Source: a virus
Taxonomy: Duplodnaviria > Heunggongvirae > Uroviricota > Caudoviricetes
Direction: 5' to 3' (one strand)
DNA: 64,000 nt
IMG/VR virus record: IMGVR_UViG_2721755662_000004
A program made the translations under genes and the position numbers. Under the pieces are notes generated by a model. The model worked only from the letters and a program-made list of their open reading frames with translations. It did no database searches and was not told the origin of the DNA. This document shows positions 14,037-14,720 of this stretch, piece by piece. The number at the start of each line of letters is the position of its first letter. Within the stretch, counting starts at the first letter, position 1.

Positions 14037-14216
14037 ATGAGCTACGCACTAAAAAAACACCCGCGATTGACTATTCCCCCTCGCGATAAAAGCGTTGTGG
14101 CAGCTCCGCGCCCGGCTATCGATGAAAATTGCACTCATCGTGAGCAGGTGAAAAATGCTTTCGATTTCGGTTTTTCTCGTTACGAGAAGGCAATGGAAGA
14201 ACTTTCAAAAGTGTAA
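14037..14216 (+). CDS. Putative antitoxin partner of Doc-family toxin (not Phd-like by sequence)
   Basis: 59-aa ORF ending 18 nt before toxin start; role inferred from position only. Confidence 0.4.
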   Translation: MSYALKKHPRLTIPPRDKSVVAAPRPAIDENCTHREQVKNAFDFGFSRYEKAMEELSKV

Positions 14217-14234
14217 TGATGGGTATTGTGCTCT

Positions 14235-14720
14235 ATGGCTGAGATTGTTGAAGGAGTGCACTACCTTTCGTTTGATGATCTTACCGAAATTAATCGCCTT
14301 TTAATTGAGCTTCAAACACCAGATGAACCTGTTAGTGTGCTGAGTGTTGATAATTTAAGTTCTTCTCAGTCTCGTCCCAGCATGGTTCGATGGTATGAAC
14401 AGACTAATGACATGTTTGTACTGGCATCAGTATTGATTGAAAGTCTGATTCAGAATCATCCATTTGCTAATGCAAACAAACGAACAGCTATGATGGCTGG
14501 TTATGTCTTCTTGTTGTTGAATGGCTATGAGTTAACAGCACCAGGCGATGAAATCGTGGAAATGGCAGAGGGACTGGCCTGCAAAACCTATACTCGAGAA
14601 GATCTCGAGAACTGGTTGTGTTATTGGTCTCGTGCGTATGACAGCCGGGAATTATGTAAAACAGGCGCAACTATTGTTTTGTATGAAACTATCAAGCTTA
14701 AAATAGAACAGCAAAACTAA
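14235..14720 (+). CDS. Doc/Fic-family toxin (Doc-type HPFxxxNKR motif)
   Basis: NHPFANANKRTAMMAGYVFL motif with NKR, characteristic of Doc rather than NGR of Fic. Confidence 0.75.
   Translation: MAEIVEGVHYLSFDDLTEINRLLIELQTPDEPVSVLSVDNLSSSQSRPSMVRWYEQTNDMFVLASVLIESLIQNHPFANANKRTAMMAGYVFLLLNGYELTAPGDEIVEMAEGLACKTYTREDLENWLCYWSRAYDSRELCKTGATIVLYETIKLKIEQQN

Follow-up and report, generated by a model that had tools for sequence, protein, structure and literature searches.

A two-gene cassette in the nin region of a lambdoid prophage

In this study we analyzed a 64,000-nucleotide (nt) stretch of DNA from a virus of the Caudoviricetes (IMG/VR record IMGVR_UViG_2721755662_000004), referred to below as the window, and focused on two adjacent genes on its plus strand that encode a toxin of the Doc family and a small protein predicted to be its antitoxin. 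The upstream gene, an open reading frame (ORF) that we call ORF59, occupies positions 14037..14216 and encodes 59 amino acids (aa) followed by a TAA stop codon. It is separated by 18 nt (14217-14234, plus strand) from doc, which encodes a protein of 161 aa plus stop at 14235..14720. The initial annotation of this region had described a 161-aa Doc-family protein carrying an HPFxxxNKR motif, with a 59-aa ORF 18 nt upstream of it, and both ORFs are indeed located as it claimed. The two genes share the same reading frame with TAA TGA between them, and a fusion protein produced by readthrough is therefore excluded.

Over positions 13600-15600, the surrounding prophage region matches the chromosomes of E. 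coli FORC_069, FORC_043 and related strains at 100% identity and those of O104:H4 strains at 99.3%. In RefSeq, the identical locus is the early-right (nin) region of a lambdoid prophage, where a cII-like regulator, replication genes, DUF1627, DUF977, DUF551 and hokD are followed by a 'hypothetical protein' (WP_000119356.1, corresponding to ORF59) and a 'death-on-curing family toxin' (WP_000818160.1, corresponding to Doc), and then by a helix-turn-helix (HTH) protein and a RelE-like toxin on the opposite strand, an ORF6N antirepressor, NinB, NinE, RusA and Q. The cassette is an insert of 841 bp with a perfect copy of a 20-nt hok-terminator repeat, AACCCGCTTCGGCGGGTTTT, on either side, the two copies being 841 nt apart. 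The left copy (13896..13915, plus strand) forms the left boundary of the insert and lies in a terminator-like hairpin of the upstream hok/sok locus, while the second copy (14737-14756) is contained in a terminator hairpin at 14735..14756 on the plus strand, which marks the right boundary. Within the 5′ region of the cassette (13916..14036, plus strand), a Shine-Dalgarno sequence, AAGGG, ends 8 nt 5′ of the ATG of ORF59, and a GGTATTAG motif is present that, in a comparison of upstream regions, was common to the cassettes of Salmonella, Izhakiella, Citrobacter and Kluyvera. This arrangement probably represents a two-gene type II toxin-antitoxin cassette carried as a non-essential insert, or 'moron', in an E. 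coli lambdoid prophage.

The assignment of the downstream protein to the Doc family is well supported, as it matched the NCBIfam model TIGR01550 DOC_P1 with E=1.3e-35 (122.2 bits against a cut-off of 38.65) and the Pfam Fic family with E=2.9e-11 (44.5 bits against a cut-off of 24). Its active-site motif, HPFANANKR (residues 75-83; 14457..14483, plus strand), fits the Doc-specific consensus HxFx(D/N)(A/G)NKR and is close to HVFANANKR, the motif of a pneumococcal Doc that has been validated by experiment (PMC4257102). In an alignment of 25 subfamily members (alignment A4), residues H75, F77, N79, N81, K82 and R83 are invariant, and the conserved core extends to approximately residue 141, after which there is a variable tail of about 20 aa. 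The closest solved structures by sequence are those of E. faecalis Doc (9vzc_A, E=1e-12) and P1 Doc (3k33_A, E=1e-4). From what is known of the family, the protein would be a Fic-fold kinase that arrests translation by phosphorylating Thr382 of EF-Tu.

ORF59 is a conserved gene that moves with doc

A profile search for relatives of ORF59 among 1.84 billion representative proteins returned 39 matches, two of which were chance matches in very large proteins, and a word-indexed search found 17 clusters of close relatives. The family alignment (alignment A3) holds 37 sequences, representatives at 50% identity including that of the window, all of which are stand-alone proteins of 44-95 aa. In E. 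coli numbering, these proteins share the signature M-x-x-A-x-x-K...RLxIPxRDK...P-[RK]-P...H-x-x-QV-x-NAF...F-x-RYEKA-x-x-x-L-[SA]-K-V, which ends at the C-terminus. The sole family that ORF59 matched was phrog_2208 (E=2.7e-42, over the full length, residues 1-59 of 59), which carries no functional annotation. There was no match of ORF59 to any Pfam or NCBIfam family at E≤1, none of the 37 family members matched a Phd or YefM profile at that threshold, and searching the Protein Data Bank (PDB) sequences with the ORF59 profile gave chance-level matches only. The initial annotation was thus right that the upstream ORF does not resemble Phd or YefM. In the published literature we found no mention of the accessions or peptide strings of the ORF59-Doc pair, and the family is absent from the supplements of the Klebsiella SLING survey.

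The relation between the two genes was analyzed by scanning with the Doc alignment, taking one genome per species, followed by hmmsearch over the six reading frames of the retrieved loci. A homologue of ORF59 was present directly upstream of doc and on the same strand in 29/29 species-representative loci that carry this ~160-aa Doc subfamily, with E-values from 1e-15 to 1e-32. All of these loci are from Gammaproteobacteria (Enterobacterales, Orbales, Pseudomonas, Stutzerimonas, Entomomonas and Halomonas), their Doc proteins show 45-77% identity, and the gap between the two genes is 7-36 nt in most of them. Pairwise divergence of ORF59 correlates with that of Doc (r=0.85). The genomic context of the pair varies: besides the lambdoid nin region of the window, it was found flanked by baseplate and tail genes in a myovirus-type prophage of Ewingella, within the tail region of siphovirus-type prophages of Salmonella, between topA and sodC on Providencia chromosomes, and in a Serratia AlpA island beside a lysyl-tRNA-synthetase-type gene. 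These findings indicate that ORF59 and doc move as a unit between unrelated contexts.

Within E. coli, 125 of 5,426 complete genomes carry the cassette, always on the chromosome, with O104:H4 and O157:H7 strains among them. The exact context of the window was found in 34 of the 125, and in many of the others homology starts exactly at the start codon of ORF59. Homology to phages that lack the cassette stops at the left repeat (13896..13915), and an artificial junction from which 13916-14756 had been removed aligned in one piece and without gaps to 168 complete E. coli genomes, such as that of strain HCP4S3_I4 (L043), in which hokD is directly followed by the HTH gene. The site is therefore polymorphic in this species, being empty in 168 genomes and filled in 34 in this context, and the data are compatible with either insertion of the cassette or deletion between the repeats as the origin of this polymorphism. 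Among deposited phage genomes, the sole blastn match to the cassette was Salmonella phage SW-37, at 71% identity.

The initial annotation had also considered that the upstream partner might be mis-called, in which case ORF59 could be, for instance, a leader of doc or a regulatory RNA, and Doc would be an orphan toxin or a non-toxic enzyme. The ORF is short, its N-terminus is proline-rich, no database family names it and RefSeq labels it 'hypothetical', all of which would fit such a reading. Its protein sequence is nevertheless conserved, at the profile E-values given above, in loci whose DNA has diverged beyond the reach of blastn. Across 31 distinct copies, the start codon is ATG in all but one, which has GTG; a Shine-Dalgarno sequence (GAGG, GGAG or AGGGG) is present 6-9 nt upstream in 31/31, and the length stays at 54-60 aa. 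The ratio of nonsynonymous to synonymous substitutions (dN/dS, Nei-Gojobori) is 0.19 overall, with 0.10 for the C-terminal 26 residues and 0.27 for the N-terminal 33, and scanning 13916-14756 against Rfam gave no family at gathering score. ORF59 is a real gene under purifying selection. Because of this selection, the conserved starts and Shine-Dalgarno sequences, and the joint movement with doc, we reject a mis-called ORF, which we regard as extremely improbable.

The two genes also differ in the way they decay. Doc is frameshifted in Proteus penneri (L036) and Arsenophonus nasoniae (L038) and truncated in a second copy from Gilliamella (L033), and in all three loci the ORF59 homologue is intact, whereas none of the loci examined showed the reverse, a broken ORF59 beside an intact doc. 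Loss of doc while ORF59 is retained is what would be expected if ORF59 protects against Doc, and judged from these sequences the pattern is typical of toxin-antitoxin modules.

A predicted C-terminal helix and its relation to known Doc antitoxins

With the family alignment as input, AlphaFold2 predicted a single helix in ORF59, spanning residues 34-57 (14136..14207, plus strand) just before the protein ends in EELSKV, with predicted local distance difference test (pLDDT) values of 82-93. Residues 1-33 were predicted as coil with no regular structure (pLDDT 59-71, reaching about 71 at residues 10-18). Column conservation over residues 34-59 is periodic (permutation p=0.005) and peaks at 90-100 degrees per residue, a pattern characteristic of helices packed onto a partner. 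The conserved face comprises H34, Q37/V38, A41/F42, F46, R48/Y49, A52/M53 and L56/S57. The amphipathic helix is the predicted Doc-neutralising element. A second conserved feature is the N-terminal motif RLxIPxRDK (residues 10-18; 14064..14090, plus strand; alignments A1 and A3), where the per-column conservation of I13, P14 and R16 is close to 4 bits, these residues being nearly invariant, and D17 is also conserved.

The scan that recovered the 29 loci also returned three more distant, out-group Doc proteins, from Symploca, Sphingomonas and Mesorhizobium, which are 126-131 aa long and 37-41% identical to the window Doc. Each of these is preceded by an AbrB/MazE-type protein of 75-84 aa that matches TIGR02609 'doc_partner' (1e-14 to 1e-20) and PF04014 (1e-7 to 1e-10), in keeping with the long-known combination of AbrB with Fic/Doc proteins (PMC2701414) and with TasA-TasB, a composite mazE-doc system (PMC1626090). 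The doc_partner proteins resemble ORF59 in being non-Phd antitoxins encoded upstream of doc, and their C-terminal tail, FERQMEAARKVMDRYKVALQKLAE, can be aligned from end to end with the helix of ORF59, with the pattern RY..A[LMF]..L[SA]K in common. When the ORF59 family was compared with the doc_partner alignment using hhalign, residues 33-58 aligned with residues 54-78, both at the C-terminus, with a score of 22.5, P=0.001 and a probability of 21.5%. No shuffled alignment reached this score, either in 300 shuffles of all columns or in 300 shuffles of the C-terminal columns (means 9.5-9.8, maximum 18.2), and the reversed alignment scored 11.7. These results support a similarity between the ORF59 helix and the C-terminal tail of doc_partner at the sequence level. 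In contrast to doc_partner, ORF59 is 15-25 residues shorter, has no swapped-hairpin AbrB domain, and bears a different conserved motif, RLxIPxRDK, at its N-terminus; it does not match TIGR02609 or PF04014 at E≤1. We make no claim that the N-terminus of ORF59 is homologous to the AbrB domain, since hhalign aligned the two only when forced or in global mode, and with low confidence. The suggestion in the initial annotation that this Doc may have an antitoxin from a different family is supported insofar as ORF59 is separate from Phd and YefM, but not in the sense of a wholly unrelated protein.

Related systems include the Phd-Doc pairs of P1 (PDB 3K33, 3DD7) and Salmonella, which likewise consist of a TIGR01550-family toxin with the antitoxin gene immediately upstream, although P1 Doc is only distantly related to the window Doc, which carries its own variable C-terminal tail of ~20 aa. 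The C-terminal helix of ORF59 is similar in length to the ~22-residue neutralising helix of Phd, and an alignment by eye places ORF59 F42, F46, Y49, M53, L56 and its end at residue 59 in a register consistent with the Phd hot spots F56, F/M60, L/H63, N/L67, L70 and the end at residue 73. The C-terminal ends are ELSKV in ORF59 and ELVNR, ELSKR and ELADK in Phd proteins, and all three antitoxin classes (ORF59, doc_partner and Phd) end in [EK]-L-[SA/V]-x-x. A comparison restricted to the Phd C-terminus gave P=0.022, with F42 of ORF59 aligned to F56 and L56 to L70. In Salmonella Phd, the residues F56 and L70 are gatekeepers (PMC9207808). The sequence of ORF59 is thus compatible with a similarity to the Phd C-terminal region (Phd-C). 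Unlike Phd, ORF59 lacks the DNA-binding domain of ~50 residues that is typical of Phd/YefM, as judged from the missing Pfam match and the coil predicted for residues 1-33. As a separate observation, the start of the doc_partner C-terminal region, SFERQMEAA, resembles the Phd linker AFERYRKAA / TFEAYKKAA (L040-L042, L044 and L045; alignment A5), and hhalign of doc_partner against P1 Phd gave P=0.0004, a hint that the two classical classes of Doc antitoxin may have related neutralising regions.

The YhfG (FicA)-Fic and VbhA-VbhT systems are similar in that a small helical protein of ~55-60 aa is encoded upstream of a Fic-fold toxin in Enterobacteria (PMC2701414). ORF59, however, has no match to the YhfG family in Pfam, and its sequence, MSYALKKHPRLTIPPRDKSVVAAPRPAIDENCTHREQVKNAFDFGFSRYEKAMEELSKV, does not contain the inhibitory motif [ST]xxxE[GN], there being no S or T with E at +4 and G or N at +5. 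In addition, such class I antitoxins inhibit AMPylating Fic proteins with a GNGR motif and not Doc kinases with an NKR motif. By these comparisons, ORF59 is a member of none of Phd/YefM, TIGR02609 and YhfG, but of an unnamed small-protein family, phrog_2208.

Taken together, the data make it likely that ORF59 and Doc form a type II toxin-antitoxin module in which the antitoxin is essentially a lone neutralising helix. This is in line with the proposal of the initial annotation that the Doc toxin has an antitoxin of another family, which the separate small-protein family and the 29/29 linkage support and for which antitoxin activity is the predicted part. In this model, ORF59 would be the cognate antitoxin, built from a disordered N-terminal segment of 33 residues followed by one amphipathic helix of ~24 residues, and this helix may use its conserved face to bind Doc in the same way as the C-terminal segments of Phd and the AbrB-type doc_partner do. 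The RLxIPxRDK motif could provide a second contact with Doc, a degron or a weak contact with DNA. A mechanism based on a lone helix is plausible because there are precedents: a 22-residue C-terminal peptide of Salmonella Phd binds Doc about as tightly as the full-length protein does (61 pM) and neutralises it both in vitro and inside cells (PMC9207808), and a SUMO-Phd-C fusion neutralises a Doc, while antitoxins consisting of a neutralisation domain alone are known (PMC10440598). ORF59 can also be compared with C. doosanense PanA-Doc D6, in which Phd-C is placed on a Panacea domain (PMC10440598). There, too, the Doc-neutralising element is short and helical, is exchangeable between scaffolds and works when detached from the DNA-binding domain. 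Unlike PanA-Doc D6, the ORF59 element occurs naturally almost alone, without Panacea, Phd, AbrB or any other globular domain, and its profile similarity to Phd is not significant.

Several observations weigh against this interpretation of ORF59 as a lone neutralising helix. The hhalign match to doc_partner has a low probability, covers 25 columns and depends on a doc_partner alignment of low diversity, and convergence of the two helices on one groove cannot be separated from homology on sequence grounds. When P1 Phd was used as a single sequence, the hhalign score against ORF59 was 14.4, which is within the shuffle range (maximum 15.8); a profile of three Phd sequences gave P=0.003, but in a different stretch of nine residues (FxRYxKA). 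RLxIPxRDK is as conserved as the helix face, and our interpretation gives no account of it. Regarding expression in the lysogen, a scan of the plus strand revealed no convincing sigma-70 promoter upstream of ORF59 in the window copy. Lastly, AlphaFold2 predicted Doc alone with a mean pLDDT of just 47.7 despite its well-conserved family, the alignment used being shallow (25 sequences, 63-95% identity). In this regard, a reference cited in PMC10440598 reportedly finds that P1 Doc needs Phd for fold complementation.

Regulation, neighbouring modules and possible role

Since ORF59 has no recognisable folded DNA-binding domain, any autoregulation of the cassette must differ from that of classical modules or make use of RLxIPxRDK. 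The upstream regions of the homologous cassettes bear on this point, and clear promoters are present in other copies. In Providencia and Morganella (L007, L012, L017 and L025), a near-consensus promoter, TTGACT-N17-TATAA[GT], lies ~60-95 nt upstream of the ORF59 homologue, and its spacer is a palindrome, TAATG[A/T]AA-N6-TT[T/A]CATTA, that occurs in the variants TAATGAAA-N6-TTTCATTA or TAATGTAA-N6-TTACATTA, a compensatory A/T change preserving the symmetry. This palindrome looks like an operator, and the candidates to bind it are presumably ORF59, the ORF59-Doc complex or a host factor. Similar palindromes are present in the promoter spacers of two other cassettes (L002 and L015). When the upstream regions of 31 cassettes were compared, however, their inverted repeats were mostly within the expectation from shuffled sequences and differed in sequence, and from these sequences only the Providencia/Morganella palindrome looks convincing.

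These operator-like sequences bring up an alternative in which ORF59 is a remnant of an AbrB-type doc_partner that still binds DNA, with RLxIPxRDK pairing in a dimer or with Doc to repress the cassette promoter, so that ORF59 would be a conventional autoregulator. Apart from the palindromes, the conservation of RLxIPxRDK to the same degree as the helix face would suit this possibility, as would a permissive hhalign alignment that, with low confidence, puts ORF59 residues 7-29 on strands beta3-beta4 of AbrB. On the other hand, ORF59 matches neither the MazE/AbrB families of Pfam nor TIGR02609, it offers only ~33 residues where a swapped-hairpin domain needs ~45-50, AlphaFold predicted no strand in residues 1-33, and local hhalign aligns the C-terminal helix alone. 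Together with the mostly unremarkable palindromes across the 31 upstream regions, this leads us to regard a cryptic DNA-binding function as unlikely.

A further possibility, which we put forward tentatively, goes beyond the lone-helix antitoxin and holds that ORF59 founds a distinct class of Doc antitoxins comprising the neutralisation element only. RLxIPxRDK might then serve as a second clamp on Doc, as a sensor of a protease or phage trigger, or as a DNA-binding ribbon that forms only in the complex, and both regulation and triggering would be unlike the conditional cooperativity of Phd-Doc.

The cassette is not the only module of this kind in the region. Immediately upstream there is a complete hok/sok type I module (13503-13827), composed of sok (13503-13677; Rfam match of 110 bits) and a Hok/Gef ORF (13615-13827; PF01848, 1.4e-23). 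Downstream and on the minus strand are a RelE-family toxin gene (15081-15451; Pfam PF06296) and its intact HTH partner (14771-15088), so that the nin region has three adjacent toxin-antitoxin modules, namely hok/sok, ORF59-doc and relE-HTH. The relE gene is frameshifted, as one nucleotide is missing from an A-run near 15405 (CGCAAAAAC to CGCAAAAC) and the frame is lost after codon 15, while in strain HCP4S3_I4 (L043) RelE is intact at 123 aa; RefSeq rescues a coding sequence of 112 aa from an ATT start. Beyond these genes, a sigma-70-like promoter (TTGACA-18-TATATT; 15519-15548) and Rfam matches to c4-a1b1 (15542-15594; 47.4 bits) and isrK (15555-15629; 74 bits, above the gathering score), along with a partial match to C4 antisense RNA (15656-15700), precede the ORF6N antirepressor gene (15794-16459), which is located just downstream of the isrK/C4 matches. 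From its sequence, the segment 15542-15700 looks like a P1/P7-type C4/IsrK antisense control of the antirepressor.

The position of the cassette among accessory nin-region modules, with hok/sok upstream and the RelE-like toxin and its HTH partner downstream, raises the possibility that the pair mainly serves as an anti-phage (abortive-infection) or superinfection-exclusion module and less for addiction or stability. ORF59 would in this case be labile or sense a trigger, and its loss at infection would free Doc, an explanation that departs from ours in the biological role and not in the toxin-antitoxin mechanism. The recurrence of the cassette in prophages of three morphotypes is consistent with such a role, as is the placement of the Doc family under 'moron, auxiliary metabolic gene and host takeover' in PHROGs, and the NetFlax paper ties type II toxin-antitoxin modules to phage defence (PMC10440598). 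However, ORF59 matched none of the PADLOC models, the best match of Doc among them was to a Fic-containing candidate at 0.002, and some copies are chromosomal and lie outside prophages, such as those between topA and sodC in Providencia. We therefore consider a mainly anti-phage role to be somewhat unlikely.

Returning to ORF59 as a probable minimal antitoxin of Doc, the finding concerns a textbook toxin-antitoxin family for which nearly everything known about neutralisation and regulation comes from Phd. It proposes a function for phrog_2208, a conserved 'hypothetical' phage family that is widespread in Enterobacterales, Orbales and pseudomonads. The advance is an incremental one, which fits the known picture of exchangeable neutralising elements. 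If the proposal is true, ORF59 would be a natural minimal Doc inhibitor of ~25 residues that helps to define what inhibiting Doc requires, and the pair would make it possible to examine how a type II module is regulated when its antitoxin lacks a DNA-binding domain.

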